A DNA stretch of 57,506 nt, taken from positions 1 through 57,506 of the IMG/VR virus record IMGVR_UViG_3300001336_000007. One strand, 5' to 3'. The DNA comes from a virus (Duplodnaviria > Caudoviricetes). The notes beneath the pieces were generated by a model. That model was not told the origin of the DNA and ran no database searches. It was given only the letters and a program-made list of their open reading frames with translations. This document shows positions 18,910 to 47,992 of the stretch, piece after piece (within the stretch, counting starts at the first letter, position 1; the number at the start of each line of letters is the position of its first letter). The position numbers and the translations under genes are program-made.

Positions 18910-18910
18910 A

Positions 18911-19300: not shown

Positions 19301-19306
19301 GTGTAA

Positions 19307-21406: not shown

Positions 21407-21422
21407 CATTGTCAACAATAAA

Positions 21423-21554
21423 TTGTGCAAACTGAATAAATTTGTTATAATTGATCAATAGTATACATTTTTGAAAAAACCATAGGTTACTGACGGACCG
21501 CGCAAGCGAAATCCCAAGGCCCAACTAGACATTGTTCTGGTTGGGCCTTTTTTT
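21423..21554 (+). promoter_or_regulatory. Late promoter + structured leader + intrinsic terminator (unit 1)
   Basis: TTGTGC-N17-TATAAT; TTACTGA-cGGA-c-CGC-GCAA-GCG-aaa-TCC; AAGGCCCAACTAGA/TCTGGTTGGGCC-T7. Confidence 0.7.
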
Positions 21555-21582
21555 ATTTAAAAACAAACAGGAGCACAGGCGC

Positions 21583-22362
21583 ATGAGCACCGAAGATTAC
21601 ACGGAAGGCGAGTACACGGAAGACGAACTGGCAGGACTGAGCGACGAAGAGCGCGACGCAATTTCCACCGATGATGAATCAGCATCTGCCGATACAGTGA
21701 CGGATGAGGTTGACGCCAACGGACCAGACGGAGGGGAAATTGTACCGCTGCAGGACGATCATGTTCAGGAGCAGGAAAAAGCGCCTGTTGTCCATCATGA
21801 CACCGTACCCCTTCCTTCAGACATAGCCGAACAGTTCAAGGCGGAACGTTCCGAGCTGGCCAGACAGTTTGACGAGGGAGAGATCGAGCTTGCAGACCTC
21901 CTTGACAGACGTGATGATGTGGCCAGGATGGAGCGTGACGCCGAAGAAAAGCATAATGTGGATGTCCGGGCCGCAAACGATTGGCAGGCAGCCCAGGATA
22001 AGTTCTTTTCTGATAACGGCCAATATCTCACCGACAAGGACAGGCACATTGCCTTGGATGCCTGCGTAAAAGCCGTGGCAAACATGCCCGGAGTCCTCTC
22101 GTTTGATGACTGCCTTGGTAAAGCGAAGAGAATGGAAGAAGCGATGAATGGGCACGTTGCTGTATCAAAGCCGCCTCCTCCAGCAGAAAAAGGGAAATCG
22201 CCACGGCCTGAAGCCCCGAGCATTGTTGACCTCCCTGCTTCAGCAGCTAATGAATCGGCAGGAGAGTTTGACTATATCGACAAACTAACCGGGGTTGAAC
22301 TGGAAGACGCATTGTCGAAGTTGTCAGAAGCGAAGCAAGAGCGGTACCTGTCCGGTAAATGA
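21583..22362 (+). CDS. Scaffolding protein
   Basis: Acidic, helical, between portal and capsid; AGGAG RBS. Confidence 0.7.
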   Translation: MSTEDYTEGEYTEDELAGLSDEERDAISTDDESASADTVTDEVDANGPDGGEIVPLQDDHVQEQEKAPVVHHDTVPLPSDIAEQFKAERSELARQFDEGEIELADLLDRRDDVARMERDAEEKHNVDVRAANDWQAAQDKFFSDNGQYLTDKDRHIALDACVKAVANMPGVLSFDDCLGKAKRMEEAMNGHVAVSKPPPPAEKGKSPRPEAPSIVDLPASAANESAGEFDYIDKLTGVELEDALSKLSEAKQERYLSGK

Positions 22363-22541
22363 GCACCCTTTATCTGGACATAGACGCTGGACGGTCAATT
22401 TACGTTGGCAAGGCAAAAGTTACGGTCGAAAAGAAGACAGGCCGAAAAGTAAGATTACGGATTGATGCAGACAGTTCTGTGTGCGTAACACAGGATGGCG
22501 GGCATATCGCCCAAAAAAAACCGATAGCTCAAGAGGGCTGA
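22359..22541 (+). CDS. CsrA/RsmA-like small RNA-binding protein
   Basis: LYLDIDAGRSIYVG.AKVTVEKKTGRKVRLRIDAD.SV follows the CsrA beta-strand pattern. Confidence 0.6.
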   Translation: MSTLYLDIDAGRSIYVGKAKVTVEKKTGRKVRLRIDADSSVCVTQDGGHIAQKKPIAQEG

Positions 22542-22558
22542 AAGCGGAGAGTTAAGCT

Positions 22559-23659
22559 ATGGCACGAACTATTGTTGGCCTGGGCGACGCGAAGGCTGTC
22601 AAAAAGTTTTCGGGTATGCTCGCAGTAGATGTAAGTCGGGAGATGTATTGGGAACGTAAGTTTATCGGCAAGGGGCGTACTGCCTCTGCTCCCATTATGC
22701 AGCTCACCGAGCTTGAAAACGATGCAGGCGAATTGATTACCTATGATTTGTCCATGCAGCTCACTCAACAGCCTATCGAGGGAGACGAAACGCAGGAAGG
22801 AACCGAGGAAGCCCTGCAGTTCTACACCGACTCCCTGTATATTGATCAGGCCAGGGGCGGCGTGAATGGCGGCGGAAGAATGACCCGCAAGCGGACCCTG
22901 CACAATTTGCGTATGGTCGGTAAGGACCGCATGGCAGAGTGGTGGTCACGGATGTTTGATGAATTGATTTTTATCTATATGTCCGGGGCTCGCGGGATCA
23001 ATGCGGATTTCATCTATCCAACTACCTGGACCGGTCGGGCGAACAACGCTATCACGGCACCTGACGCATCCCACCTTCATGTTGCCGGTGGACACGCCAA
23101 GGGAACCCTGATCGCTGATGACAAGATGAGTCTTGCCGAGGTCGACAAGGCGCTTGTCAAGGTGAAAGCCATGGGTGGCGGTACCCAGGGCGTACCAAAG
23201 ATGAAACCGATCAAGATTAACGGCGAGATGCACTACGTCTTGGTTATGGGCACCCGACAGGCAAGCGATATGCGGATTTCTACCGGAACCGGCGGGTGGC
23301 TTGATCTGCAAAAAGCAGCCGCTACCGCTGAAGGGCGTAACTCCCCTATCTTTAAGGGCGGTCTTGGCGCGTATAACAACGTCGTTCTCCATGAACATGA
23401 GGCGGTTGTTAGATTTTCCGACTACGGATTAGGCTCAAATGTCGGCGCCGCACGGGCACTGCTGCTCGGTAACCAGGCCGGTGCGCTCGCTTATGGATCA
23501 CCGGGCACCGGGTTGCGCTACGACTGGCACGAAGAGTCCCGGGATAACGGAAACGTTGTCGTCATTTCTTCGAGCTGTATTTTTGGCTTCAAGAAAACAA
23601 CCTATAACGGGCTGGATTTCGGCGTCATGGCAGTAGACACCGCGTCTCTGGCCATTTAA
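22559..23659 (+). CDS. Major capsid protein (N4-gp56 family/DUF4043)
   Basis: ELENDAGELITYDL, IDQAR, MTRKRTLHNLR, SPIFKGGLGAYNNVVLHEH, DFGVMAVDT. Confidence 0.92.
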   Translation: MARTIVGLGDAKAVKKFSGMLAVDVSREMYWERKFIGKGRTASAPIMQLTELENDAGELITYDLSMQLTQQPIEGDETQEGTEEALQFYTDSLYIDQARGGVNGGGRMTRKRTLHNLRMVGKDRMAEWWSRMFDELIFIYMSGARGINADFIYPTTWTGRANNAITAPDASHLHVAGGHAKGTLIADDKMSLAEVDKALVKVKAMGGGTQGVPKMKPIKINGEMHYVLVMGTRQASDMRISTGTGGWLDLQKAAATAEGRNSPIFKGGLGAYNNVVLHEHEAVVRFSDYGLGSNVGAARALLLGNQAGALAYGSPGTGLRYDWHEESRDNGNVVVISSSCIFGFKKTTYNGLDFGVMAVDTASLAI

Positions 23660-23671
23660 CGGAGGATAATA

Positions 23672-24118
23672 ATGGCACTTTTAAAAGCAGCAGAAGTTCT
23701 TAAAGTTCCGATCACCTTGGACCAGGCCGGGCAAATGGTTGTCTCTGTCGGAACGTATGAGGTACCTGATACCCTGGCCGCAAACGACATCGTTGCCCTG
23801 TGTCACCTCCCTGCCGAGCATGAGATCGTTGATTTCACGCTTCAGTCAGACGACCTTGACACGGGAACTCCAGCCATTGCCGTATCGGTAGGGGTGCTCA
23901 ACGCGGGTATGACCGATTTAGTATCCGGGACGAACCTCCTTACCACATCTACCGTTGCACAGGCTGGAGGTGTAGCAAGGGCGTCTGTGGTTGATGGCCT
24001 CCAGTTGTCTGCGTCGGATGCCAACAGAGTCGTTGGTGTTAAAGTGACTACTGCGGCTGATACTGCAGCAGCCGGAACACTGCGGGGAGTTCTCACCTAC
24101 CGTAGGGCGCGTAGTTAA
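23672..24118 (+). CDS. Capsid decoration/minor capsid protein
   Basis: Beta-rich, directly after MCP; DDLDTG motif. Confidence 0.65.
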   Translation: MALLKAAEVLKVPITLDQAGQMVVSVGTYEVPDTLAANDIVALCHLPAEHEIVDFTLQSDDLDTGTPAIAVSVGVLNAGMTDLVSGTNLLTTSTVAQAGGVARASVVDGLQLSASDANRVVGVKVTTAADTAAAGTLRGVLTYRRARS

Positions 24119-24136
24119 ATTTAACATTTAGCTGTA

Positions 24137-24178
24137 TGGGCGGGGGGAGTAAAATCCCCCCGCCCGTTGAGGTTTTTT
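24137..24178 (+). terminator. Intrinsic terminator after capsid genes
   Basis: GGGCGGGGGGA-gtaaaa-TCCCCCCGCCC followed by a T run. Confidence 0.75.
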
Positions 24179-24619
24179 ATGAAAATACAATGCCTGATAG
24201 ACAGGGACGGCGTGACGACAGTCATGTACAACGGAATCCGGATGGATTTCGAAAAAAACGAGCACGGTGATTATGTCTGCGACGTCTGCAACCCAGGTTC
24301 AGTTGACTATCTGTTGAAGACGTTTGGCGGTCGATTTTACCGGGAGTATGTCGAACCTGTCATGCCGACCTCTCCTTTTGTCATGCCCACCTCCCCCCTT
24401 GAAACAATGTTGTTTAACGCGGGAGATACCAGCGCCACTGAACCGGTGGCCGAACAAACCGACAGGCAAAGTGCCAAGGAATTCTATCAGTCATTGACCG
24501 AAAAAGAAGACGTGGAGAGGTATTGTCTGCAGGATTTCGGAGTTAACCTGTCTCGTCGCTTCTCGCTGGAGAACATGAAAGAGCAGGTCTTTGCCATCAT
24601 CGACAAGGAGTATGAATAA
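24179..24619 (+). CDS. Hypothetical virion-module protein
   Basis: GAGG RBS; VMPTSP tandem duplication. Confidence 0.65.
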   Translation: MKIQCLIDRDGVTTVMYNGIRMDFEKNEHGDYVCDVCNPGSVDYLLKTFGGRFYREYVEPVMPTSPFVMPTSPLETMLFNAGDTSATEPVAEQTDRQSAKEFYQSLTEKEDVERYCLQDFGVNLSRRFSLENMKEQVFAIIDKEYE

Positions 24620-25278
24620 TGGGAGTTATACTTGCTTCGGCAATAATCACCAAGGCGCAGACGATTATCCAGGATGCAACCGGTGTGCGGTGGCCGGAAG
24701 CGGAATTACTCGGGTGGATCAACGAGGGCCAGCGGGAAATAGTTCTGCTGAAACCCGACTCCTCGGTAAGAAACGAATCGAAAATTCTCATTGCCGGTAC
24801 AAAGCAGTCCATTCCTGCCGATGGTATCGTCTTAATAAGCGTTGTCCGAAACATGGGCACCACGGGAACCAGTCCCGGCAAGGCGGTACGGTCCATCAAC
24901 CGGCAGATTCTCGACGAGCAGGTACCCGACTGGCACGCGGCAACCACTGATGCCAGTGCGGCCTACTGCGTTTATGATGGCCGTAACCCGAAAGTCTTTT
25001 ACGTGTACCCGCCGCAGCCTGCAGTTTCCCCAGGATATGTTGAATTGATCTATTCGGCGGCACCTGCCGACATGGCGACGGTGAGCAGTGCCATCACCCT
25101 TGATGATATTTATTCCGGATCATTGCTGGATTACTGCCTGTTTCGGGCGTATTCGAAAGACGCAAACTATGCCGGAAACAACGAAAGGGCCATGGCGCAT
25201 TACCAAAAATTCGTTGAAACGTTGTCTCTTAAAGAAAAAATTGAGGGCGCCACGGAAATGACCTCGGGTGAGAGATGA
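24619..25278 (+). CDS. Head-tail adaptor protein (DUF6682-like)
   Basis: VRWPEAELLGWINEGQREI, FYVYPP, DYCLFRAYSKD. Confidence 0.75.
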   Translation: MGVILASAIITKAQTIIQDATGVRWPEAELLGWINEGQREIVLLKPDSSVRNESKILIAGTKQSIPADGIVLISVVRNMGTTGTSPGKAVRSINRQILDEQVPDWHAATTDASAAYCVYDGRNPKVFYVYPPQPAVSPGYVELIYSAAPADMATVSSAITLDDIYSGSLLDYCLFRAYSKDANYAGNNERAMAHYQKFVETLSLKEKIEGATEMTSGER

Positions 25279-25883
25279 CCGGCGCACAACTTCTTGACAT
25301 GCTCATGCGGCGGATTGCCGCTATTGACAACAGTAGCGGCCTGTCGTTTATCGATGCGCTTAACTCTTCGGTTGAGGTCGCTTTTCTCAGGCTATGGGCG
25401 AAGCGATCGGAGATCGTTCAAGAGTCATTTGATATCTACGCCGACGACGAACCGTTTGCTCTTCCGGACAACTTCCGTGGCTTTGCCGATGGGCCGTACC
25501 TTGTTCGCGATTCTTCTACCATAGTGCTCGAGCCTCTTCCGCCAGGATCACTTGCCGAGGTTGCCAGCTATACCGGCACGCCCAGGTACTATTCGTTGCT
25601 TGGCGCCAATGTCGAGATTTATCCTCCGGCGCTCTACTCCGATGAGCTCAAGGGTCGGTTCTATGCCTCACCGGGGACACTCGGTATGGAGAGTACCTTA
25701 CCCTGGGGCGGGGTGTTCGACTGGCTTATAGCCGATGGAGTTATCGAGGCGACGAAAAACGGCGGAACGACTGCTCTCCTGGCTAACCAGGCGTTCTTGA
25801 TCACCATGGACGCATCTATCGACGCTATCCTCTCTGCACGGAATAATCCTGCCAGGAGACGGGTCAAAGCGCAATGGTTCTAA
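25275..25883 (+). CDS. Second adaptor-like virion protein
   Basis: FALPDNF, GTPRYY, IYPP motifs. Confidence 0.6.
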   Translation: MTGAQLLDMLMRRIAAIDNSSGLSFIDALNSSVEVAFLRLWAKRSEIVQESFDIYADDEPFALPDNFRGFADGPYLVRDSSTIVLEPLPPGSLAEVASYTGTPRYYSLLGANVEIYPPALYSDELKGRFYASPGTLGMESTLPWGGVFDWLIADGVIEATKNGGTTALLANQAFLITMDASIDAILSARNNPARRRVKAQWF

Positions 25884-25912
25884 TGTAGGTAAAAAATAAA
25901 AGGCGGGGCCAG

Positions 25913-27526
25913 GTGCTTATATCTATCAGATCGTTCAAGGGAACAATCCCTAAACTCGACGCGCGACTCATCCCTGAACCATACGGGCAAATTGCCGCGA
26001 ATTGCCGTACCGACCGGGGCAGTCTCCGGCCAATCAAGAATTTTCTCTCAGTCAATACCCCTTCTAAAGTCGGAACCAAGAAGACCATTTTTAAATATGG
26101 CCTGTTCTGGCTGCATTGGCTGGAAGATGTCGATGTCGTTCGCGGACCTATAGCCGGGGATACAACCGACCGGCTATACTGGACCGGAGAAGGTGTTCCG
26201 AAAGTATCCAACTCGACTATCATAACAGCCGGTGGAGGAACGAATTACCCAACGAACGCATACACCCTTGGTATTCCGGTACCGCCGTCAATGCCATCTC
26301 TTGCCGTAGTCGGTGAATCGGTGGACACGACGCAGGCGGAATCACGATCGTATGTCTATACCTACGTTTCAGCATGGGGAGAAGAGGGGCCGCCTTCTGC
26401 TCCATCGGGTATCATAGCGGTGGAACCGAGTCAGTCTGTCAACCTCTCTTTACTGTCTGTTTCCCCTACCGGATCCTACAATATAACCAGCAAGAGAATT
26501 TACCGGACAGCTACCGGGACAACCGGAACTGAGTATAAATATGTCGGGGCGGTGTCCATTGCCGCCACGACGTTTAGCGACACAGTAGCCACGGAAAGTC
26601 TTGGTGAAGCGTTGCCTTCCGTAACATGGGACGCTCCACCGGCCAATATGCACAGCCTTCACCTGCATCCATCCGGATTCATGGTCGGTATCAGCGGCAA
26701 GGATATTTGTTTCTCAGTGCCATACATGCCCCACGCATGGCCGGAAGCGTACCGGGTACCGATAGACTACACCCCGGTTGGTTTGGGGGTATTCGGCAAC
26801 TCAGTTCTAGTATTGACCAATGGCCGGCCATACCTGATTACCGGAACAGATCCGGAGTACATGACCAAAGAGCACCTTGAAATCAATCAATCGTGCGTGA
26901 GCAAACGGGGTATCTGTGATATCGGTGATGCCATTGCTTATCCATCTCCTGACGGGTTGATCGTTATCGGCCCCGGAACGGCAAAGAACATCACTGAGGA
27001 TGTTTTCACCCGCGAGCAGTGGCAGGCTCTTGTCCCTGCAAATCTCATTTCAGCTTTCCATGACGGCTGTTATTACGGGTTTACCGGAAATAGCGGAGTG
27101 GTGATCGATACCCGGGAGGACGGTGTAAAAACTCTCTCCACCATAACCGCTACCGCGGCCTATGAAGACAAGATAACCGATACTCTGTATTTGATGGTCG
27201 GCAGCAACATTATAGCTTGGGAAGGACACGCAACCGACAATTATTCCACGGCGAAATTCAGAAGCAAGAAATACTCGATGAACAGCCCGGTAACGCCGCC
27301 TTCTGTCGGCATGGTTACGGCTGCAGGGTACCCGGTAACGGCAAACCTCTATGCAGATGGAGTGCTGAAGCATACGCAAAACGTTGTGTCATCGGCTCCC
27401 TTCCGTATTCCCGGGGGGTATTATGCCAGTGAATACGAGATAGAGATTGTTTCCGCCTTTGAGATCTACAGCCCGGTACTGTTCGCCACAACCATGGAAG
27501 AATTACGCAAGGCAACCCACCCATGA
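25913..27526 (+). CDS. Tail nozzle/stabilization protein
   Basis: SRSYVYTYVSAWGEEGPPS, PHAWP, SCVSKR; podovirus tail position. Confidence 0.75.
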   Translation: MLISIRSFKGTIPKLDARLIPEPYGQIAANCRTDRGSLRPIKNFLSVNTPSKVGTKKTIFKYGLFWLHWLEDVDVVRGPIAGDTTDRLYWTGEGVPKVSNSTIITAGGGTNYPTNAYTLGIPVPPSMPSLAVVGESVDTTQAESRSYVYTYVSAWGEEGPPSAPSGIIAVEPSQSVNLSLLSVSPTGSYNITSKRIYRTATGTTGTEYKYVGAVSIAATTFSDTVATESLGEALPSVTWDAPPANMHSLHLHPSGFMVGISGKDICFSVPYMPHAWPEAYRVPIDYTPVGLGVFGNSVLVLTNGRPYLITGTDPEYMTKEHLEINQSCVSKRGICDIGDAIAYPSPDGLIVIGPGTAKNITEDVFTREQWQALVPANLISAFHDGCYYGFTGNSGVVIDTREDGVKTLSTITATAAYEDKITDTLYLMVGSNIIAWEGHATDNYSTAKFRSKKYSMNSPVTPPSVGMVTAAGYPVTANLYADGVLKHTQNVVSSAPFRIPGGYYASEYEIEIVSAFEIYSPVLFATTMEELRKATHP

Positions 27527-29694: not shown

Positions 29695-29696
29695 TA

Positions 29697-30107
29697 ATGC
29701 ATATATTTTATAATACAAATACAGGTGAATTAATCTGTAGAATAATGTGTCCAGACGAGGATCTACAAGCCAACATAGATAACCAAAGAGAAGGCTACGG
29801 GGTATTTCCGTACTATCCAAGTGATGATGATTCTATAATTGAAACTCATTACCACGATCTGGCTAATTCAATTCTCCCTCGCCCTGAAATAACCGCTGAA
29901 CCAGACAAACTTACCCTCTCCGCAGATAGTGTGGATTCAATCGTCATTCAAGACTTACCCCTCCCATGTACGGTCAAGGTAAATGAAACAGCATATGAGG
30001 TAAATGATGGAGAGTTTGAGTTCACAACCGATACTGTAGGTACCTTTACCGTCACCGTGGAACAGTTTCCATATATCACCAAATCCTGGGAGATAGAAGC
30101 CGTATGA
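29697..30107 (+). CDS. Tail fibre accessory protein
   Basis: GAGG RBS; follows the fibre; LPLPCTVKVN...YEVNDGEFEF. Confidence 0.6.
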   Translation: MHIFYNTNTGELICRIMCPDEDLQANIDNQREGYGVFPYYPSDDDSIIETHYHDLANSILPRPEITAEPDKLTLSADSVDSIVIQDLPLPCTVKVNETAYEVNDGEFEFTTDTVGTFTVTVEQFPYITKSWEIEAV

Positions 30108-30454
30108 AAGTAGCCCTGAATACCGATTACCAGAAGGCTGAATTACTCCGTGCAGCCAAGCTCACCAGGGATACTGCTATATCAAGTGATATCACTGTAT
30201 TTGATGTCATATGGCAGGTCAACGAGAATGGTCGGGATAACATGCGTAATGCCATTGAAACGGCGGTAACACTCAACCTCCCGGTAGAAGAACAGAGAGG
30301 TTGGATACTGTCTGATAACTCCATTCGACCAACCACGGTAGAGGATCTACGCCAGGTGCTTATTGCCTATACCTACCGTATGGATCAGATATTTCAGCAG
30401 TACACTATCTGGCGGATGAGTGGGGCCAACACCGTGTTTGTTATCAACCAATAA
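30104..30454 (+). CDS. DUF4376-like tail fibre assembly protein
   Basis: AKLTRDTAI...WILSDNSIRPTTVEDL. Confidence 0.7.
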   Translation: MKVALNTDYQKAELLRAAKLTRDTAISSDITVFDVIWQVNENGRDNMRNAIETAVTLNLPVEEQRGWILSDNSIRPTTVEDLRQVLIAYTYRMDQIFQQYTIWRMSGANTVFVINQ

Positions 30455-30563
30455 TGGCACATAACAAAAAAATGTTGTAGAATAGATAAATCATATCACC
30501 AACGAACCCTTACAGGTAATTCAGCGGCCCTTCTCAGAAAACAAATGAGATGGGCCTTTTTTT
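30455..30563 (+). promoter_or_regulatory. Late promoter + structured leader + intrinsic terminator (unit 2)
   Basis: TGGCAC-N17-TAGAAT; GAA-c-CCT-TAC-AGG-taa-TTC; GGCCCTTCTCA/TGAGATGGGCC-T7. Confidence 0.6.
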
Positions 30564-32262: not shown

Positions 32263-32271
32263 GGAATCGCC

Positions 32272-39700: not shown

Positions 39701-42700
39701 ATGAGGACGGGGAAAAGCAAGTCAACATCACCAAGAGATACAAGAACAAGAAGGTCATGTTCTTCGATGCCGATTCACCGGCTGTACGGGCTCTTGAAAA
39801 GGAGGATGACAACGGCAATGTAACCAAGGGGCCATTCCTTACCGGGCGCAGCATCCAGAAACCGGAAAGAAAGAAGCCGGAAACAATTGCCGACGCATTG
39901 GCGCTCAGTCTTGATTTTCACGGTGTTCTCGACCTTGCCGACATTGCCGATTCGATAGGAATAACCGAACAGGAAGCCATAGACGGGCTCGGGGATTTGA
40001 TTTACAAGAATCCGGAGGGCGCAGCCTGGGAAACCAGGGACGGCTACCTTGCGGGCGATGTCAAAGGAAAACTTGCCATAGCAAAAGCGGCGGCGGCGGC
40101 GGATAGCCAGTACGAAAGAAACGTCAAGGCATTGACCGAAGTGCAACCGGCACCGCTGAAAGCGGCTGATGTTACCGTCAAACTCGGGGTACCGTGGATC
40201 GATACCAATATCATTCAGCAGTTTGCCAGTGAGGTTTTTGGTGTCGGAGTGAGTATTGAATACTCCCCGTCGACCAACTATTACAAGGTAAGCCCCACTG
40301 GCAACAACACGGTACAGGGCGGACGCGGCGAGGCGAGCGAGTGGGCGACGCAGAGACGATCATCCATTGAATTGCTCGACAGCGTGTTGAACAACCGTAC
40401 CATCAAGGTTGTTGATACAATCGACAAGAAGACCGTACCAGACGTTACCGGGACAGTTGCGGCGAACGAAATCGCGGACAAAATGCGTAAGCGGTTCTCT
40501 TCATGGGTATGGGAAGACGCAGGCAGGGCCGGGAATATTCTTGATGAATACAACGAGAAGTATAACAACCTGTCCGGGCGTAAGTTTGATGGTTCTCATT
40601 TGACATTGCCGGGCGTGTCCTTGCGGTTCAACCTGCACCCACATCAAAAAAATGCTATCTGGCGAATCATCCAGACCGGCAATACGTACCTAGGCCATGC
40701 GGTAGGCGCCGGTAAAACCATGATCATGATTGCCGCAGGAATGGAGATGAAGCGGCTTGGCTTGGTGCACAAGCCTATTTATGTTGTCCCTAAGCATATG
40801 CTCGCGCAATTCTCCAATGAATTCCTTGAACTGTACCCCATGGCAAATATCATGGTTGCCGACGAGGAAAACTTCCATACCGACAATCGGCGCAGCTTTA
40901 TTGCCCAGGCGGCATTGAATAGCCCTGATGCGATCATTATTACTCACCCGTCACTTGCAAAGCTCGGGATGCGTCAGGAGAACATCGATGTTGTCGGCGA
41001 TGAAATGATACAGGATCTTCGTGACTCCCTGGCGGAAATGGAAGCAGACGATTCGCAGGGCAACAGGTTCCTGATTAAACGGGTAGAAAGCAGGATAGAA
41101 AAACTCGAACAGATGCTTGCCGGAATGGTAAGCCAGGATCGCGACCAATCCATGACCTTTGAGGAAATCGGCGCCGACTTCATGTTCGTCGACGAGGCGC
41201 ACGAATTCCGTAAGCTGGATTTTGCCACCAACCGGCAGGCGAAAGGTATCGACAGCAAGGGCTCAATGAAGGCAATCGATCTATTTATCAAGACGAAATG
41301 GCTCGGGACACAAAGCCCAGGACGATCACACGCCTTTGCTTCAGGTACTCCGGTAACGAACACCATGGGCGAGCTGTATAACCTGATGCGGTTCTTTATA
41401 GACGACCAGATGGAAGCCGAAGGAATCAGGCATTTTGACGCATGGGCTTCGATGTTCGGGGAAGTTGCACCTGACTTTGAACGTAACGCGGCAGGTAAAC
41501 CGGTCATTGTGGAACGATTCGCTAAATTCGTCAATGTCCCTGAATTGATGAAGCGGGTACGATCATTCATGGACGTGCTTACCTTTACCGACCTTGGTGC
41601 CTTCGTTAAGCGGCCTGATGTTTCGGGCGGTGTTCCGAAGATGGTTATCTCCAAACAATCAAAAGAACTGACGGCATACCTCAAGGGGGAATTGAGCAAC
41701 AGGATAGAAGAATCTTTAGCCTTTAAGCCGTCAAAGCAGCAACCCGGCAACCCTGACCCGATGATCAACATTATCACCGACGGACGGCTTGCCTCTATCG
41801 ATATGCGCTATATCAATCCCCGTTTACCGAATGACCCGGGCAGCAAGCTAAATACCATGATAGACGGGATCATCGAGACATGGAAGAATACCGGCGAACT
41901 CGCCTATGATGAGAAAATAGGCGGCGGCCCAAGTAAGATGAAGGGCGCGGCGCAGATTGTTTTCTTCAATCTTGGTTTCGGCGATGGGGTCAAACAGCGC
42001 GGGTTCGATGCGCGGTCCTGGATGACGAAGAGATTAAAGGAGGCGGGAATACCGGCCAGCGAAATAGGCTGGATGGAAGATGCAAATACGGCAGCCAAAA
42101 AGGACAAACTTTTCACGGCAGTAAGAAGCGGAGAGAAGAAGATAATTATCGGTTCCGCCAAACAGATGGGGACCGGTGTCAATGTGCAGAACAGGTTGCA
42201 TACCCTGCATTATATGGATGCCCCCTGGTTCCCGGCAGATGTCGAGCAGCCACTTGGCAGGATAATTAGACAGGGCAACCAGAACGAGATGATTGATATC
42301 TTCTGGTATGCAACGGAAGGTTCCTACGATTCGACCATGTGGCAGATGGTCGCCCGTAAGTCGAAGTTTATCGAACAGGCCTTCTCGGGTGACGATTCGG
42401 TTCGGTCCATTGAAGATGTTTCCGCCTCCAGTACCTACGAAATGGCGACGGCAATAGCTTCGGGGGATTCAAGGGTTATACAGCTTGCCGGCCTACGAAA
42501 CGAGATAGAGCGGCTCGAAAGACTGAAGACGGCACACGCCGACAATCAGCGAACCATGGCGTCTAATCGCAGGATGGCAGAAAACTCTCTTGCCTGGCAC
42601 GTAAGGCAGGCGAAATACCTTACCGAAGCGGCGGCCAAGGTTGGCGGCTTTATTCGTGAACCAGACGGCATTGTTGATGGAAAGTCATTTGAGAAACGGG

Positions 42701-45700
42701 CCGAACTTGGCCAGGCTATCCAGGAAAAGGTTCAGGCGAGGGTTGAAGAAGTCGGCGAAATCAAAGACAGTGCTGTTGCAAAAGATGTCGGAAAACTTAA
42801 CGGATATCCTCTTGTTGCTCTTATCGGCAGAAGGGGTGCCAATCTGCAGTTGGTCATAACCAAGAATGTTAAACTTGAGGTGAATCACGAAGGTGATGCT
42901 GCAGGACTTGTTACCCGTCTGATGAACACTCTTAATGGTGTTGCGACAAAAAAACGGGACAATGAAGGCAAGATAGAGGATTACAAGGACGAGATAGCCA
43001 AGTATGACAAAAAGCTCGGTGCGCCATACGAGCACGGAGCCGAGCTCAATCAGAAGATAGCCGAGGCGCAGCAGCTGCAAAATGAACTTACCTCAGAAGA
43101 TGACGCACCGCCGATACCGAGCGACGGCATACTGATTTCCATGGACGAAGGATTAAGCCTGGAAGAAGCCGGGCTGAGAAAAGGCCATGCTGTAAGTAAT
43201 AAAGGTGTTTCTCCCAATCGGGTGCATTGGGCAAAGGAAGCAACGGACGACGACCAGGGCCAGGCGGCGCCCAAGCAATCGCAATCCAGCCAGAAGGTAA
43301 AGAATCCCTCTTCACTTGCGGACCTGTCCCGAGATCAACGGGCGGTTATTCAGCCGATGATCGATTCAGGCGATATGGTTATGCTTTCGGCGGCAGAGGC
43401 AGAGGCGATCTTGGTTGAAGCTGGCGTGAGTGCTGAACAGGCTAAATTTATGGTTGCCTGGCATGGCTCCCCGCATGACCATGATGGATTTCGCATGGAT
43501 AAGGTTGGTACCGGCGAAGGGGCGCAAATTTACGGCCATGGTTTATATTTTGCCGGGAGCAAGGAAGTTGCAGAGTGGTATCGTAAAAAACTTGGGAAAA
43601 ACCTTGTCGCATACCTGAACGGCAAGAAGATAGCGGACCAGGCCGGATATCTTGCAACACATATAAGAAACATCATGAGTGCTTTTGATTTCAAGCAGGG
43701 CAAAGAAGATGCAATTGCCGACTTGAAATTTCGTCTTGCCGTGGAAGAGAAGAGTGTCGGTAGCGGTTGGCTGAAAGATGCAACAACACAGGATATAAAA
43801 AAGGCGATAGCAACCATAGAGGAAGCCAACGAAGGCGACATAGACGCACGAAAAGGAACTCTCTACCAAGTAGAACTAGCACCCGAACAAGAAGATTATC
43901 TTGATTGGGATAAACCTTTGAGCGAGCAGAGTGAGGTTGTTAAGGAAGCCATTCAGAACGCTTTTAACGATATTGTCAATAACGAGAGTGATTATCATAA
44001 GGCGAGCAAATTAAGCCGAGAATTGACCGTTGAAAACTTTAAAGAAAAAGACGGCAATGACATTTACAGAACCATCTCAAGAGAGCATGGTTCAGACAAA
44101 GCAGCCTCCGAATACCTCCACTCCCTGGGAATCAGAGGAATCCGCTACCTAGACGGTTCCAGCCGGGGCAAAGGTGAAGGTGATTCGAACTTTGTAATCT
44201 TCGACGAATCGGATGTGTCTATCACCGCTAAATACTCCGCAGACGGCAAGGTACAGGGTTTCGCCATGCCCGACGGCAAAGTCTACCTGATACCGGAAAA
44301 TATCGAGCAGGGTAAATTGTGGGGCGTCATCAAGCATGAGGTTGGTGTTCATGTCGGTCAAGTCCTGCATAACAACAAAGAGTTTCAAAACCTCCTTCGC
44401 AGCCTGGAAAAACGGCAATTCGAGCAGACACCGACCGGCGAGGCGTTACGCGAGGCTTTCAAGCGGGTACCGAAGAACACCAAGAAAGAGCACGTATCGG
44501 AAGAGGTTCTTGCCTACATGGTCGAGAATCATCCTGAAGTTACCCTGGTGCGCCGGGTAATCGCTCTCATCAAGCGGATCCTCTTCAAGATGGGCGTGGA
44601 TGCGAAAATATTCACAGCTGCTGATTTCGCGGCACTGGCTGATATGGCGGTGCGGGTAAATTCGATGAAGGGCGGTGCTGTCAGTACCGGGAAAGCGAAG
44701 CTACCAAAGAGTAATGACGGTACCCGCTTCTCAGTCTCCAAAGAAACACCAACCTCCCCACTCTCGACAGAATCACTCGCCGAGACAGCCGGGCAGATGG
44801 GTACTCTTACCGTTCTGAAAAACAAGAAGGTTGATTCAACGTTCCTTGACCGGATACTTTCGACCCCTGAATATTATTTCAAGAAATTTGCAGCGGCCGG
44901 CAGGGTGCTGCAGGCGGCGTTACTCCGCCGGGATATCCGCTACGAGAAGGAACAGGCGGTGCTCGGGGATTTCGTTACCTACATCAAGGAACTGCGGGAG
45001 AAGTTTAAGGATGCCTATAAGGAGGCAAACGACTACCTGTTAAATACCGATCAGACCGGCGACGGCTTCCGGATCAAAACCCTGGACAGTGGTAAGTATC
45101 AGGTGTCCAAGCCGGAATCGGCACTGACCGAAGAAGAGATCCAGGAGATAGAAGACAGTATCGACAGGACGCAATCCCCGGACAAGCAGGCCCACGACCG
45201 ATGGAAAGCCATCGAAGAAAAGCGCATTGTCGGTGAGTTTGTCGAGGAAGAGGACGGCGTAAAGGCCATGCTTGACGCAGAATCGGCACTACTCAAGGAG
45301 CGGGGCTACTCGGAAGAGGCGATCGTGGCGATCAGAAAGGGACGTGAGCTGACCAACCGGGGCTTTGATATCATGGCGGCGGACATGCGGCGGATCATCC
45401 AGGAAGCCAAGGACAATGGCCTGCCCAACCCGTTTATTGGAGACGGCAAGATTGATGAGTCCGGGCGGTACGGTGTTTATGCAGCCGGAAAGTCAAAACC
45501 GATTGCTCTCTTTGCCACACAGAAAGAGGCAAACGAGATGCTCGACAATGCCGCGCAGATGATTTCTTATGTTGTCACCAGCAGGAAAAAGGGGCGGCGG
45601 ACCTTCACCAACGAGCTGAAGGCGAAGCGATGGGCAAAAGCGCATTCGGGCACGGTGAAGGGCAACAAGGCTTTCCAGAACCTTACCGTCAAGAAACGAT

Positions 45701-47862
45701 CGGACAAGGATATGCGGCCTTTGACCGTCAAAGCGGCACTGGCACAAATGGGCGATCTTCGCGGCACGTTCTTTCCGCGAATACGTGAATCAGGGGAATA
45801 CGTGCTCATTGCCCGAAAGGACGGGGAAAATCCTATCCGGAAACATTTTGATATCCCTGCAGTCGGCGACGACAAGCCGACCTTACAGGCATTTCTAAGC
45901 AAGACAACACCGATAGGCCGCGAAATAAAGGCACTGAGGTTGCGGGGCTACAACGTCACCACCGAGAAGGACAAGTCACCGAGTGAAGATGTCTTCGAGG
46001 CGACCAACCTCATTACCTCCCTTGATGCGCTCCTGCAAAGTTCCATGGAGGTTGTCAACAAGAACGAGGACATGAGCGTCAAGGCCGGGCAGCATATCAA
46101 CAAGATTCTCACTATGCAAATTGCCGATATCTTCAAGTCCCGCGGTTATCTGTCGAGCAGATTGAAACGGCTTGCCGGGGATGAGGTGTGGGAAGGCTAC
46201 GAAGAGGACATGGGCAAGGCCCTAACTCAATACGGGAAGAGCGTTGCAGCCGGTACCGCCAAACGTGATACTGCCCGGGCAATGGTTCTGGCCTTTTCCG
46301 GGCGCGACTACACCTGGGAGCAGTACAAGACCGATGTCGAGAAGCCGGAGTGGGCGGAATACCAGCGGATCGTTGAAGAGCGCAGGATTGACGAGAGAAC
46401 ACAAAAAAACCTTTTCAGGGATGTGCGGTCTTTCATGATCGATATCTTGAGAAACGACGAGCAGGTAGACCGGATAATCGGCACACTCAAGGGGCTTGCG
46501 GTGTTGAAGTATCTTGGCTTCCGGGTAAGTTCGGCGGCGGTGAACTTAACCAATATGGCGCAGGGTGTCCCGGCCACCATTTCCGGCCATACCGGCGAAT
46601 CACTCACCAAGGCTATAGGCCGGGTCATATCGGCGGCGACCGCTTACGGGAAATATCGTTTAGGTAAAGATATCAGCGACGACGACCGTAAAATATTCGA
46701 GTACATCTCCGCCAAAGGGTGGGATGAAGCGCAATTCAACCACGAAGCGGCAAGCGAATTGCGCGGAAAATTGGGTGAAGGCTGGAATAAATTCATGACT
46801 GCCGGCATGTATATGTTTGGTGCGGCCGAGAAAGTCAACCGGGCGACAACCCTGTTTGCCGCTTACAAGGCCGTGGATGCGAAAGAAACAACGGCGGAAG
46901 AGTCGGTCAAATGGGAGAAGGCGAAAGAGATCAGCGACCGGGCGCACGGTGTTTACGGCAAAGAAACCATTCCGGCATGGGCACGGGGGAAATACAATAT
47001 CCTGCGATTGACGTATCTCTTCCAGAAATTTTCCCACAACTACATGCTGAATATGATCGATCTTGGATTCAATAGGAAAGAATACAAAGCTGCTGCGTAT
47101 ATGCTCCTATCTCCTGCGCTTCTGGCCGGGTCCAGTGCATCGTTGGCCGGTCCCGTATTATTTGCTCTTGCCGGTGCGTTCGGTATCGGCGGTGACGATC
47201 CTGAAGAAGCCTGGTACAAATGGGCGGAAGATACTTTTGGCGCGGGGGATTATGCCCGTCATGGCGTTTTCGGTGGCCTGGTCGGTGTCAACATCAAGGG
47301 TAGTCTGCAGATGAATAACCCGATGCCAACCTCCTTAACTGAACTTGTCGGAGCAGCTGGCGGAGTGGTGGCGGACACCGGCAAGGGTATCAATCATTTG
47401 TTTCATGGCGAGCTGGCCAAGGGCGCCGAAATGCTCTTACCGACCGCCTTTGGTTCCTGGTCAAAATCTATCCGGGAAGGAAGAGAGGGAATAACGACCA
47501 GTAATTACGGCTCGGTATTCTACGGTGACGAGCCCTTGAAGGCGGACGCGGCGGACCAGATTATCAGGTTCCTGTCGTTCAATCCTTCGCGGATATCCGG
47601 GATAAGAGAAAAACAGTGGAATGAGAAAGAGGTTGCGGCCGGGTACCAGGGAGACAGGGCCGAGATTTATTCGAGCATCAAGCGGCGGCATCTTCAGGGC
47701 AAGTCGATCACGCCGGAGATATACAAGGCCATCTACAAGTATAATGAGCGGGTAAAGAGATCGGGGAGAAAAGATATTTCTCTTATTACGCCAAAAAATA
47801 TAAGGATCATGATGAAGAGGAATAGCAAACCGAACAGGACAGAAAGGTACCGGGATATTTAA
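33790..47862 (+). CDS. Giant polyvalent ejection protein: N6-adenine MTase + SNF2 helicase (DarB-like) + ART-like/LPD + zincin-like + PLxRFG-type C-terminus
   Basis: 4690 aa; VLEPGAG and IGNPPF; HAVGAGKT, VDEAH, QPLGRIIRQGN; WHGSPH..GTGEGAQIYGHGLYF; KHEVGVH. Confidence 0.9.
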   Translation: MPFDPDKPFDIIENSNTGFDPNKPFEIVEDIPRQTWGGVIKDTAIDAAKGVVGGGRAIVGLTNIFTGNLAGKGLSKVGYDPEATNEILSSGYSDRRKYTNQKVSEAEGFWPTIVALVDHPSVAFGAIVESAPMTLTGVAAARTAAVKMLGSALAKNNIAAGTEAAKAFAGKFFADKTVQGTLVAVGAGTEGAQTAGGIQEQGRHAGRSYGETIGPALAAGLTTTAIGAVTSKIPGLRDAEASIATAGLGAQRSGSGILGSAKEVGKAMVKEGPIEENLQSGQEQYFTNVAMGEDDTAKGVTKAMATGTVVGAMQGGGMSLGSELLKAPIDKTKQSNLGTIAANVVVEDQEQATDEVIAETGGMEDVIADNVTIIDPATGEFTTSTGKPFVSESALRTHARLKHVDLDNYSITRRDNGFVAVPFAKEDIIEGGTDNAFDSIDITTEQKSATDPAKEIQQQPDLEDVKRLGPHLREMWGSIEQGTNPDFVKPKVLNDWEKQTGEPVKSYVSSTSAKETLLAVGNGEQLTEEQAKVWSYLKSVAENKAMVAEQGTGEFSADFGGEAPAPANNTEGESDKGWSAVNKKFTDSPSKETAQETGSWLLSNAEEGDTLNFPEGDGYKVTRVTVSKTTGRKSVELIPFDENGEENVPAMIIFNEDDPGSGVVGKIPDNTHLLHEYTYTSASSGERVTQRSRYEKNISAPAPAKPSQRTMVDPETGETFDIDTGEIVAPVEPEGEPVQPVTPDVSPEDRDLLDTNDIMNDFADSSQDGQLRENEKYRQAKFERMQKDTEPQGAINDSVQETGNQITPETDTPANLEGKEGTVPEGTQGDSGAEAGPERKGLVDDSGEVGGKELPVKVRDTRGDTYYVMQSDIDNGNRTILPIYKKDGSKSNLKVPALHRDNIKTDDEIKANYDTYIWPLDGQDGKGYTSEASTIREINKIGQKVSDYDIVEDNGRFVANRTKAWLDAHKQPDPVTANEEGVAEGNGSDSDRVNNPSSLVEHTVKKSGKIIKGIVRTDLTKEEAKKIDPYTFKKDGGFFIREKYLTDAEKNPVVSQETTTSPVVAQETDNVSDKGGDQISPVEPTGETVQGKSNAQVGDTVRGEAGIDMEVISSYANQDDAMKSEVLLNKDTGKFHSVLTDVDSGSVVGVKIFNDKKLADEDARAKANLTPTEEPAAEKPKIKNNYWQNDSDTGWDGKPLPAEDEAVVGSQSSKTTEQKQPVNAKEEAVVGSESSKDQFANNKLFTADAVEAARARLKAKRNSLNAGLDPELIQDMLTLGGAYFEAGIRDFATWSKTVLSDIGDEFKPFLRGTYENLRYYPGLDTEGITSHADVDAILSDEKKLLSPEKEPTIKETQSTTTDGVNNGTLAARNEKGTAEDDRDGTKGDVTESVSPDKRGGEGTTGISGTEGSGLNGGIRDGKLPDGTAGQENGPVANEAGPGNRDADKDDLGSSPGGQPNIPGKPLHAGRDYRIPAGGIKREGSWKATAKRNLDIIELAKKLDKENRPATPEEQELLSLYTGFGASEIANNLFPGYAQNGKVMPNWARDEGWKELATRLTDILTKDEIKTAARSTQYAHYTSEAVINSIYSALQKFGFKGGKVLEPGAGVSSFWGLIPKSMHNNSNYTGIEMDHVTALIAKHLYPQQNILRADFTQQKLPGNFFDLAIGNPPFSDTKITSDPDYKRNKFMLHDYFFAKSVDKVRPGGLLVFVTSKGTMDKGNDSARQYLADRADLLGAIRLPQTAFKQNAGTEVVTDVLFFKKREEGQLAGGEAWLDLGEVTTPEGPTLINEYFVAHPEMILGTNSLQGTRYRANEYTVLPLEGNIEDHFAKAIENLPSSVYSKAKEKAKPKKTKKTGKKAEKREDVVEYEFDLKNKKEGGLYLNDKGKLMRVKSGAGMTVTSLDGLTEKQITWLKDYVPLRDAVKKAQHDQLTNGDWEKSLKALNKAYDKFVAKNGPIHDNTITEKIVIDEDGEKQVNITKRYKNKKVMFFDADSPAVRALEKEDDNGNVTKGPFLTGRSIQKPERKKPETIADALALSLDFHGVLDLADIADSIGITEQEAIDGLGDLIYKNPEGAAWETRDGYLAGDVKGKLAIAKAAAAADSQYERNVKALTEVQPAPLKAADVTVKLGVPWIDTNIIQQFASEVFGVGVSIEYSPSTNYYKVSPTGNNTVQGGRGEASEWATQRRSSIELLDSVLNNRTIKVVDTIDKKTVPDVTGTVAANEIADKMRKRFSSWVWEDAGRAGNILDEYNEKYNNLSGRKFDGSHLTLPGVSLRFNLHPHQKNAIWRIIQTGNTYLGHAVGAGKTMIMIAAGMEMKRLGLVHKPIYVVPKHMLAQFSNEFLELYPMANIMVADEENFHTDNRRSFIAQAALNSPDAIIITHPSLAKLGMRQENIDVVGDEMIQDLRDSLAEMEADDSQGNRFLIKRVESRIEKLEQMLAGMVSQDRDQSMTFEEIGADFMFVDEAHEFRKLDFATNRQAKGIDSKGSMKAIDLFIKTKWLGTQSPGRSHAFASGTPVTNTMGELYNLMRFFIDDQMEAEGIRHFDAWASMFGEVAPDFERNAAGKPVIVERFAKFVNVPELMKRVRSFMDVLTFTDLGAFVKRPDVSGGVPKMVISKQSKELTAYLKGELSNRIEESLAFKPSKQQPGNPDPMINIITDGRLASIDMRYINPRLPNDPGSKLNTMIDGIIETWKNTGELAYDEKIGGGPSKMKGAAQIVFFNLGFGDGVKQRGFDARSWMTKRLKEAGIPASEIGWMEDANTAAKKDKLFTAVRSGEKKIIIGSAKQMGTGVNVQNRLHTLHYMDAPWFPADVEQPLGRIIRQGNQNEMIDIFWYATEGSYDSTMWQMVARKSKFIEQAFSGDDSVRSIEDVSASSTYEMATAIASGDSRVIQLAGLRNEIERLERLKTAHADNQRTMASNRRMAENSLAWHVRQAKYLTEAAAKVGGFIREPDGIVDGKSFEKRAELGQAIQEKVQARVEEVGEIKDSAVAKDVGKLNGYPLVALIGRRGANLQLVITKNVKLEVNHEGDAAGLVTRLMNTLNGVATKKRDNEGKIEDYKDEIAKYDKKLGAPYEHGAELNQKIAEAQQLQNELTSEDDAPPIPSDGILISMDEGLSLEEAGLRKGHAVSNKGVSPNRVHWAKEATDDDQGQAAPKQSQSSQKVKNPSSLADLSRDQRAVIQPMIDSGDMVMLSAAEAEAILVEAGVSAEQAKFMVAWHGSPHDHDGFRMDKVGTGEGAQIYGHGLYFAGSKEVAEWYRKKLGKNLVAYLNGKKIADQAGYLATHIRNIMSAFDFKQGKEDAIADLKFRLAVEEKSVGSGWLKDATTQDIKKAIATIEEANEGDIDARKGTLYQVELAPEQEDYLDWDKPLSEQSEVVKEAIQNAFNDIVNNESDYHKASKLSRELTVENFKEKDGNDIYRTISREHGSDKAASEYLHSLGIRGIRYLDGSSRGKGEGDSNFVIFDESDVSITAKYSADGKVQGFAMPDGKVYLIPENIEQGKLWGVIKHEVGVHVGQVLHNNKEFQNLLRSLEKRQFEQTPTGEALREAFKRVPKNTKKEHVSEEVLAYMVENHPEVTLVRRVIALIKRILFKMGVDAKIFTAADFAALADMAVRVNSMKGGAVSTGKAKLPKSNDGTRFSVSKETPTSPLSTESLAETAGQMGTLTVLKNKKVDSTFLDRILSTPEYYFKKFAAAGRVLQAALLRRDIRYEKEQAVLGDFVTYIKELREKFKDAYKEANDYLLNTDQTGDGFRIKTLDSGKYQVSKPESALTEEEIQEIEDSIDRTQSPDKQAHDRWKAIEEKRIVGEFVEEEDGVKAMLDAESALLKERGYSEEAIVAIRKGRELTNRGFDIMAADMRRIIQEAKDNGLPNPFIGDGKIDESGRYGVYAAGKSKPIALFATQKEANEMLDNAAQMISYVVTSRKKGRRTFTNELKAKRWAKAHSGTVKGNKAFQNLTVKKRSDKDMRPLTVKAALAQMGDLRGTFFPRIRESGEYVLIARKDGENPIRKHFDIPAVGDDKPTLQAFLSKTTPIGREIKALRLRGYNVTTEKDKSPSEDVFEATNLITSLDALLQSSMEVVNKNEDMSVKAGQHINKILTMQIADIFKSRGYLSSRLKRLAGDEVWEGYEEDMGKALTQYGKSVAAGTAKRDTARAMVLAFSGRDYTWEQYKTDVEKPEWAEYQRIVEERRIDERTQKNLFRDVRSFMIDILRNDEQVDRIIGTLKGLAVLKYLGFRVSSAAVNLTNMAQGVPATISGHTGESLTKAIGRVISAATAYGKYRLGKDISDDDRKIFEYISAKGWDEAQFNHEAASELRGKLGEGWNKFMTAGMYMFGAAEKVNRATTLFAAYKAVDAKETTAEESVKWEKAKEISDRAHGVYGKETIPAWARGKYNILRLTYLFQKFSHNYMLNMIDLGFNRKEYKAAAYMLLSPALLAGSSASLAGPVLFALAGAFGIGGDDPEEAWYKWAEDTFGAGDYARHGVFGGLVGVNIKGSLQMNNPMPTSLTELVGAAGGVVADTGKGINHLFHGELAKGAEMLLPTAFGSWSKSIREGREGITTSNYGSVFYGDEPLKADAADQIIRFLSFNPSRISGIREKQWNEKEVAAGYQGDRAEIYSSIKRRHLQGKSITPEIYKAIYKYNERVKRSGRKDISLITPKNIRIMMKRNSKPNRTERYRDI
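36176..36337 (+). CDS. Nested +1-frame ORF (53 aa, basic helical) inside the giant gene
   Basis: AAGGAG-N6-ATG; MILFKRLEIRLLQKPTHQLTLKEKRELYLKERKEIQERRQGRKGKGWLMTRER; host frame is a disordered linker here. Confidence 0.45.
   Translation: MILFKRLEIRLLQKPTHQLTLKEKRELYLKERKEIQERRQGRKGKGWLMTRER
37886..38227 (+). CDS. Nested +1-frame ORF (113 aa, TnpV-like helical protein) inside the giant gene
   Basis: GGGGTGA SD; amphipathic sequence LRETSPKVYHLI...ELPEFLELREAALMEEF...RMIWEVALADNLIFP; host frame is G/D/T-rich over the same span. Confidence 0.65.
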   Translation: MALWQQGMRKERLKMIETALRETSPKVYHLIKEVEKELPEFLELREAALMEEFETASYQMEQQVKKMDLSPMKQAQEIEMRTRMIWEVALADNLIFPESLYMPDETTEYQQEE

Positions 47863-47881
47863 GCACCACAATCACAACCAA

Positions 47882-47992
47882 TTGCAGCAAAGAAATAAAT
47901 ACAGTATAATACCCATATCCGCTTACTGAAAGATCCCGCAAGGGAAATCTAAAGCCCGGTGAAGAGAAGACTCTTTGCCGGGCCTTTTTTTT
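47882..47992 (+). promoter_or_regulatory. Late promoter + structured leader + intrinsic terminator (unit 3)
   Basis: TTGCAG-N17-TATAAT; TTACTGA-a-AGAT-CCC-GCAA-GGG-aa-ATCT; GCCCGGTGAAGAG/CTCTTTGCCGGGC-c-T8. Confidence 0.7.

Follow-up and report, generated by a model that had tools for sequence, protein, structure and literature searches.

How can a temperate phage express its head, ejection and lysis genes if each of these blocks is preceded by a promoter-like site that leads, almost at once, into a strong intrinsic terminator? The question is posed by IMG/VR record IMGVR_UViG_3300001336_000007, a temperate tailed phage (Duplodnaviria; Caudoviricetes) whose 57,506-base contig, analysed as the whole record and called the window throughout, holds three such cassettes (units 1, 2 and 3), each consisting of a sigma70-like promoter site, a two-tier hairpin of 19-20 nucleotides (nt) and the terminator. 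A sequence-only reading had singled them out as a candidate antitermination RNA element gating the late operons. The interpretation preferred here, to which we assign a probability of roughly 0.45, is that the units are gates operated by factor-dependent processive antitermination, with the hairpin serving as an RNA signal of the nut or boxB kind.

Architecture of the three units

Re-reading of the sequence recovered promoter, two-tier hairpin and terminator at all three places that had been named, each on the coding strand (Table 1). The hairpins follow one plan, namely a lower stem of 3 base pairs (bp), a 1-nt bulge on the 5' side, an upper stem of 3 bp, a loop of 3 or 4 nt and an A-rich bulge of 3 nt on the 3' side, and RNAalifold, unprompted, arrives at the same two-tier fold. 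It was borne out that units 1 and 3 share the heptamer TTACTGA, placed 1 nt 5' of the hairpin, and a GCAA loop carried on stems with compensatory changes, and that unit 2 has the same topology. Units 1 and 3 additionally have an A-rich spacer sequence in common, and their conserved motif lies about 35 nt past TATAAT in unit 1 and about 12 nt past it in unit 3. The promoter spacer of 17 nt that had been given for all units holds for units 1 and 3; in unit 2 the site is read here with a spacer of 18 nt, from ATGGCA, and is the same site as the TGGCAC-17 read before.

The distance from the cassettes to the genes behind them amounts to 29 nt between terminator and start codon in unit 1, 0 nt in unit 2 and 16 nt in unit 3. 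Because this leaves no room for a further promoter, the head, ejection and lysis genes would need read-through of the terminators. In our reading of the terminator scan, the late region has four plus-strand sites in which a hairpin of -16 kcal/mol or lower is followed by a T-run, that is, the three units and a site at 24132-24178 inside the unit 1-to-unit 2 operon. From this site to unit 2 no convincing promoter is seen, and transcription of the genes at 24179-30454 depends on passing it; the tail genes would therefore need read-through as well, an indication that the polymerase is modified in a processive manner.

The pattern TTGNNN-16..18-TANAAT occurs four times on the plus strand of the window (12175, 16121, 21423 and 47882), in every case before genes and within or bordering a non-coding gap when checked against the list of open reading frames (ORFs), and 10 times on both strands as compared to 4.9 +/- 2.2 in shuffles. 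A narrower promoter pattern gave 3 hits for 0.09 expected, a post hoc figure in that the pattern was written after the sites had been seen. The bare heptamer TTACTGA is not enriched (5 found, 4.9 expected). A covariance model of heptamer plus hairpin returned the three units alone (E 4e-9 to 1e-5, with 1.3e-5 for unit 2; next best E ~1), and since these are its training sequences, the result shows uniqueness and not discovery. Folding of whole units against shuffles gave z scores of -4.2, -3.3 and -4.5 for units 1, 2 and 3, which are this low because of the terminator.

Table 1. Positions of the units and of other features discussed in the text (window coordinates unless a locus is named).
Feature	Position	Strand	Remarks
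Unit 1, whole	21423-21554	+	before scaffold/capsid (head) genes
Unit 1 promoter-like site	21423-21451	+	TTGTGC-17-TATAAT
Unit 1 linear motif	21482-21494	+	ATAGG+TTACTGA+C, directly 5' of hairpin; TTACTGA at 21487-21493
Unit 1 hairpin	21495-21514	+	GGA-c-CGC-GCAA-GCG-aaa-TCC; 1-nt 5' bulge, 3-nt 3' bulge
Unit 1 intrinsic terminator	21518-21554	+	-20.9 kcal/mol, T7
Unit 2, whole	30454-30563	+	before GNAT/ejection genes
Unit 2 promoter-like site	30454-30483	+	ATGGCA-18-TAGAAT
Unit 2 leader block and hairpin	30488-30522	+	conserved
Unit 2 hairpin	30504-30522	+	GAA-c-CCT-TAC-AGG-taa-TTC; topology as units 1 and 3, 3-nt loop
Unit 2 intrinsic terminator	30526-30563	+	-16.3 kcal/mol, T7; GNAT ATG at 30564
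Unit 3, whole	47882-47992	+	before lysis block
Unit 3 promoter-like site	47882-47910	+	TTGCAG-17-TATAAT
Unit 3 TTACTGA and two-tier hairpin with GCAA loop	47923-47950	+	TTACTGA at 47923-47929, hairpin at 47931-47950
Unit 3 intrinsic terminator	47954-47992	+	-22.2 kcal/mol, T8; first small lysis-block ORF at 48009
Fourth promoter-like site of the same type	16121-16149	+	before small terminase gene; no hairpin or terminator after it
Strong hairpin and T-run	24132-24178	+	inside unit 1-to-unit 2 operon; no leader motif
Candidate factor ORF	12899-13162	+	85-87 amino acids; arginine-rich N-terminus, cysteine cluster; phrog_4499, function unknown
Small terminase (TerS) gene	start 16299	+	
Large terminase	16991-18493		assigned by position
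Portal	19307-21406		assigned by position
Scaffold-like gene	start 21583	+	
Capsid gene	start 22559	+	
Integrase	55016-56131	-	
Units of G001	L174:2925-3062; L175:13925-14090		
Units of G004	L183:800-930; L184:15300-15465		the two positions of the G001 units
Type B copies	L050:7857-7962, 13193-13300; L052:4988-5094, 10603-10705; also L054, L047, L071, L197, L199, L200		

The hairpin and the layout in related phages

The closest relative, a locus referred to as L001 (capsid 78% identical), has two units, one between portal and scaffold genes, as unit 1, and one before the GNAT gene. In its unit 1, the hairpin differs from that of the window at 7 of 20 positions, six of which form three compensating pairs such that all 6 pairs are kept. 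The ATAGG-TTACTGA block and the GCAA loop are identical, with the heptamer again 1 nt 5' of the hairpin, and the surrounding spacer has diverged. In unit 2 of L001 the stem is that of the window and only the loop differs (TTT vs TAC in the window). A set of six sequences, which is tiny, mixes paralogues with orthologues and is itself the source of the structure, shows pairing in 97% of cells and variation on both sides in 5 of 6 pairs, with a covariation score of 0.87 as compared to 0.44 in shuffles (0 of 500 reach 0.87); the signal collapses once the pairing partners are shifted by 1-3 columns. To judge from the compensatory changes in L001, selection acts on the fold of the hairpin. Since the pairing is kept while the sequence changes, both among orthologues and between units 1 and 3, an RNA structure is favoured over a site in duplex DNA.

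A promoter-like sequence of some kind is always near the units of L001 and of a further relative, L068; at unit 2 of L001, the hexamer most like a -10 element is displaced downstream by 6 nt. Other routes to relatives added little. A metagenome scan with the capsid protein found no relative closer than 63% and nothing on this hairpin type, a scan with the GNAT protein returned the contig of L001 alone, and a scan with the holin gave three loci, all of them without units. When all units of the window, of L001 and of two wider relatives (G001 and G004) were aligned together, the result was uninformative.

The layout reaches further than the hairpin, to two other giant-protein phages that have little else in common with the window. 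G001, a complete genome of 58.8 kb whose clear homologues to the window are confined to the giant protein, the endolysin, two small proteins and distant head genes, has two units, one before the small terminase gene and one between the giant gene and the lysis genes. Each has TTGCAG, 17 nt and a good -10 hexamer, with a leader motif of about 25 nt that is common to both and peculiar to G001, and the -35 hexamer and spacing of unit 3 recur at the equivalent place (L168). By eye, the leader before TerS also contains a motif similar to the ATAGG-TTACTGA of unit 1. G004 has units at the same two positions, for which inspection by eye revealed no obvious common leader motif, and a CATA(T/G) motif recurs just past the -10-like hexamers in the units of the window, G001 and G004 (by eye). 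BLASTP of the window ORFs against those of G001 found no shared early regulator.

More distant relatives, including prophages in bins labelled Syntrophus and Syntrophorhabdus, carry at the portal-scaffold boundary an element of about 105 nt with another structure, here called type B, of which a second copy lies about 5.3-5.6 kb downstream in L050, L052 and L200. In an alignment by reference (A8; 11 sequences from 8 loci), RNAalifold predicts a three-way junction in which an invariant 5' GGGU pairs with an invariant GCCC beyond the T-run. The first hairpin shows compensatory changes, the junction has the motif C-G-N-A-A-G (N varies in 2 of 11 rows), and in the long terminator-like hairpin the A-rich flank pairs with the U-tract and further; in all, compensatory changes are found at 16 of 29 pairs. 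It resembles the units of the window in its GG-TT start, in the CGCAAG motif and in having 9-11 nt of A-rich spacer ahead of the terminator stem. Roughly 20 nt separate it from the portal stop codon, and inspection by eye reveals no evident promoter-like site in them. According to this model, transcription seems to continue beyond the U-run, and type B is a warning against taking each such unit as a simple gate. Taken together, the same layout with other motifs in G001 and G004 and the larger element in prophages suggest that gated late operons are common in the clade.

A proposed gate, its precedents and its alternatives

In the preferred interpretation, each promoter would give rise to a short leader RNA, cut off at the strong terminator, and the head, ejection and lysis genes would thereby be kept silent in the lysogen and in early infection. 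A phage product made earlier would then bind the nascent leader at the bulged hairpin and the conserved heptamer before it, in a nut-like fashion (boxA plus boxB), and would render RNA polymerase resistant to termination, allowing it to pass the terminator of the unit as well as later ones such as 24132-24178. To place a promoter before a strong terminator is sensible where passage can be switched, lambda PR'-tR' being the example, and hard to understand for an attenuator of fixed strength; behind unit 3, moreover, stands the lysis cassette, in a phage that is able to lysogenise.

The nearest precedents for the signal are the N/nut systems. HK022 and Q are taken up below with the alternatives that resemble them. 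In the non-lambdoid phage mEp021, the N-like protein Gp17, which has an arginine-rich motif, acts on three nut sites (PMC11893012). As in N/nut systems of the lambda type, the units have in what would be nascent RNA a short hairpin, with a GNRA-type loop in units 1 and 3, a conserved linear element before it, a position between promoter and terminator and several sites per genome, and a small protein with an arginine-rich N-terminus, the candidate factor, is encoded upstream. Unlike N/nut, they would gate late (head, ejection, lysis) and not early operons, each site is directly followed by a terminator, the stem is two-tiered and bulged, one unit has a 3-nt loop, no sequence homology to the N family was found and the candidate protein also has a cysteine cluster. 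With respect to boxB, the GCAA loop sits on a 3-bp upper stem in units 1 and 3 and in unit 1 of L001, whereas unit 2 has a 3-nt loop in both the window and L001, and L068 has lost the tetraloop. With respect to boxA, TTACTGA is unlike the enterobacterial sequence, a comparison that is weak because the host is probably not enterobacterial.

Other mobile elements offer a looser parallel. The bipartite RNA-plus-protein antitermination of conjugative elements (conAn of pLS20; Tn916) and the leader hairpins of LoaP (PMC11658703, PMC10325885, PMC12691694) are likewise reported to combine processive antitermination specific to a mobile element with a leader RNA near the promoter that is needed to pass downstream terminators. 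They differ in hosts and in proteins (LoaP is a NusG paralogue), whose homologues were covered here by the general Pfam and PHROG scans.

Neither sequence families nor the literature provided a name for the units. At the gathering score, Rfam 15 had 0 matches in the window, in agreement with the earlier view of a candidate undescribed RNA element, and none in L001, L050, L052, L197 and L200, type B elements included; a permissive search of the window gave chance-level hits only. A literature search for Bcep22 together with antitermination found nothing, and the units were not found described in the literature searched, which does not prove that they are unpublished.

Which protein could act on the units? 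As had been stated, no Q or N homologue is recognisable: neither family was found by Pfam and/or PHROGs among the ORFs scanned, not every one of which was run against both libraries. A screen of short ORFs for arginine-rich N-termini gave eleven in the window, among which 12899-13162 was judged the sole real gene because the others nest inside longer ORFs in other frames or strands. The gene caller of the protein collection gives it as 85 amino acids with the arginine-rich motif included, and it lies in the small-gene block after the promoter-like site at 12175, a sensible location for a middle regulator. The arginine-rich motif, which in our view brings to mind those with which lambdoid N proteins bind RNA, is retained by a homologue of 64-67% identity and by two members further removed, and the family has an invariant cysteine cluster followed by a conserved basic stretch. 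An exhaustive search among 1.84 billion proteins yielded 16 representatives at E <= 1e-3, and a word-based homologue search 2 proteins. Pfam gave no meaningful family (best E 0.078, one member), a sequence search of the PDB nothing meaningful, the protein atlas no usable hit and a literature search on the cysteine-cluster motif nothing. The ORF is a candidate for the trans factor as a lead only. The full proposition would be that a nut-like RNA signal before the three terminators is read by the phrog_4499 protein and that this constitutes an undescribed processive antitermination system of late operons in phages of syntrophic deltaproteobacteria, which on balance is unlikely.

A number of observations weigh against factor-operated gates. 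Taken by themselves, the small hairpins are of ordinary stability (z -0.22, +0.93 and -1.46 in units 1, 2 and 3). Unit 2 has neither the GCAA loop nor TTACTGA, and a single shared factor would therefore require a looser recognition rule. The unit 1 orthologue of L068 lacks the closing pair and the tetraloop. Furthermore, comparison of the window with L001 and with L068 shows no base-for-base conservation of the -35 and -10 hexamers. Of the gating that had been proposed, the three units, the late genes reachable only by read-through and the selection on hairpin structure stand; active promoters, effective terminators, regulated read-through, recognition of the RNA and a trans factor are its inferred part. 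The suggested covariance-model search of related phages brought no new member, since model R1 found its training sequences only in 86 related loci (1.08 Mb), which implies a very narrow family. In the same vein, a scan of IMG/VR for the exact pattern of the unit 1/3 motif gave 8 matches with one true unit, that of L001. (The other seven of the eight have no terminator in the following 70 nt and look coding by eye.) By pattern scan and 86-locus search, the hairpin type is restricted to the window, L001 and L068.

The protein side and the RNA libraries add to these objections. No antiterminator family of Pfam or PHROGs appeared in any ORF scanned. The structure model of 12899-13162 is poor (predicted local distance difference test, pLDDT, 51) and makes its N-terminus a helix at low confidence. 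Its family was found in 0 of 5 relatives (G001-G004 and G006), an empty answer that is uninformative for this search, and the 7 IMG/VR loci that do carry the family showed no comparable units; their terminator-type sites number three in all, all in L194. In type B, the pairing beyond the U-tract suggests, as far as the model goes, an element of processing, stability or the read-through state, which fits better than a simple gate. A wastewater run (X2) contains a relative 90-99% like the window, which covers 27 of the 30 bins of window positions 16001-36000. Finally, two metatranscriptome runs (X3 and X4) contain contigs 90-99% like the window, which span about 22215-25567 and about 29900-30070. 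None of the contigs listed for these two RNA libraries bridges a unit, and as contigs cannot show transcript ends, they say nothing for or against transcription starts or termination.

If such objections are given more weight, the explanation that fares best next to factor-operated gates is one without a dedicated factor, in which the terminators would be partial stops or insulators that set ratios and shield the late genes, and the hairpin would be a stability or processing element or a put-like signal. Type B elements suggest as much, with no evident promoter-like site and a pairing that encloses the terminator and continues past the U-run, as would suit a structured RNA in a read-through transcript. 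Most capsid relatives, too, do without such an element (no run of six T within 1.1 kb before the capsid gene in 48 of 67 loci examined), and several have portal and scaffold genes that directly adjoin each other. However, a promoter upstream of a strong terminator is wasted unless read-through is switched, the terminators are strong on paper, and a leaky stop before lysis genes would conceivably be costly to a temperate phage. The put sites of HK022, two larger stem-loops of about 70 nt, can make polymerase resistant to termination without a dedicated protein, and the units are like them in being a putative cis-acting structured leader RNA just past the promoter. They differ in offering one 20-nt hairpin plus the terminator itself; and a factor-free signal directly before its own terminator would render that terminator pointless except as an insulator. 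We regard an explanation of this kind as doubtful.

The placement of the units calls to mind the Q protein of lambda instead. Here, a phage protein would load via a DNA site on a polymerase paused close to the promoter, the leader would consist of DNA or pause signals and the hairpin would be incidental. A promoter that leads within about 70-110 nt to a strong terminator ahead of late genes is the layout of PR'-tR' (PMC9388147, 10.1101/651190). The units match it, in that a constitutive-looking promoter and a short leader run into a strong terminator ahead of a temperate phage's late and lysis genes, and here as there later terminators require processive read-through; the recurring CATA(T/G) motif and the A-rich spacer common to units 1 and 3 could likewise be DNA signals. 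That the compensatory changes keep pairing and not sequence speaks for RNA structure, however, and the variable spacing between motif and TATAAT fits poorly with a promoter-proximal DNA site. There are, moreover, three units vs one in lambda, and no Q family was found among the ORFs scanned. We consider a Q-like mechanism distinctly unlikely. The units are closest to N/nut in the kind of signal and to Q and PR'-tR' in placement and purpose, and can be filed under neither because there is no homologous protein, no recognisable boxA and one unit without a GNRA loop.

Conceivably, the units could also be genes in their own right, that is, three small trans-acting RNAs of about 65-100 nt with a 5' seed that contains TTACTGA, a hairpin and a terminator, the late genes being transcribed by other means. 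The usual small RNA gene has a promoter of its own and a short body, and its terminator follows an A-rich stretch and ends in a long U-tail. The units fit this layout, and the best Rfam match at unit 1 in the permissive search, albeit insignificant (E 3.5), is the small RNA family SdsR/RyeB. Yet the 0-29 nt between terminator and gene leave no room for another promoter, all three units lie exactly at late-operon boundaries on the coding strand and unit 2 is without the putative seed, so that we consider this quite improbable. That promoter-like sequence rich in AT, weak hairpins and ordinary terminators should have come together by chance is hardly credible. Short hairpins and 9-of-12 promoter matches are common, it is true, general promoter scans are no better than shuffles and the hairpin z scores are unremarkable, but chance would not be expected to produce one topology in three copies without other covariance-model hits in the window, compensatory changes in the L001 orthologues and exact positional conservation at two module boundaries.

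The phage and what a late-gene gate would mean

The phage is a temperate podophage and kin of Bcep22 and PBC5, with a capsid protein that shares about 50-53% identity with its counterparts in Sinorhizobium phage PBC5, Agrobacterium phage Atu_ph08 and Burkholderia phage Bcep22. A search for near-identical phage records found none. Because the closest prophage capsids sit in bins labelled Syntrophorhabdus (63%), Syntrophus (59%) and deltaproteobacterium (57%), the host is probably a syntrophic bacterium of the Syntrophorhabdus, Syntrophus or deltaproteobacterium kind, a placement made from capsid similarity. Nearly all genes are on the plus strand, the integrase being an exception. Early and replication genes (helicase, primase) come first and are followed by the small-gene block (12203-14219), packaging and head genes, tail genes extending to 30454, the GNAT gene from 30564 with ejection-type genes behind it, and a final block of holin, diversity-generating retroelement (Avd, reverse transcriptase) and endolysin.

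Several features were noted in passing. Bcep22-like phages are known for giant virion proteins, and a single ORF of 4690 amino acids (33790-47862) has a C-terminal part 67% identical to the 4508-amino-acid ORF of G001. The diversity-generating-retroelement-like cassette (49401-53566), between the holin and endolysin genes, comprises an ORF of 806 amino acids, an Avd-like protein (51839-52228) and the reverse transcriptase (52532-53566). After the primase-like gene comes a gap of 307 nt (11896-12202), possibly an origin or a control region, in which a motif of about 9 nt recurs several times in either orientation (by eye) and for which the terminator scan lists two minus-strand terminator-like hairpins. 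A divergent control region (15940-16150) separates the minus-strand genes at 14709-15939 from the gene of the small terminase; it contains a direct repeat of about 9 nt in tandem, a palindrome of 13 nt and the fourth promoter-like site. ORF 4547-4933 matches the PHROG families 'endolysin; inhibits RNA polymerase' and dATP/dGTP pyrophosphohydrolase, and ORF 18490-18909, between the putative large terminase and portal ORFs, has a RyR domain. One record of RNA run X3 matches the window solely at 17600-17632 (33 nt, in the putative large terminase ORF) and is bordered on both sides by one non-phage sequence of 28-29 nt; this resembles a CRISPR spacer flanked by its repeats and would indicate immunity to the phage in some bacterium of the sample.

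To our knowledge, nothing has been reported on transcription control in Bcep22/PBC5-like podophages with giant virion proteins or in syntrophic deltaproteobacteria, the probable host group. If the preferred interpretation of the units as factor-operated gates is true, they would be an addition to the short list of phage antitermination systems, one that concerns late genes and acts at multiple sites, and would supply an RNA signal of 20 nt and a small candidate protein that are directly testable in reporters. Should that protein indeed be the phrog_4499 product, the differing RNA signals of sister phages would represent a family of matched pairs of RNA and factor.

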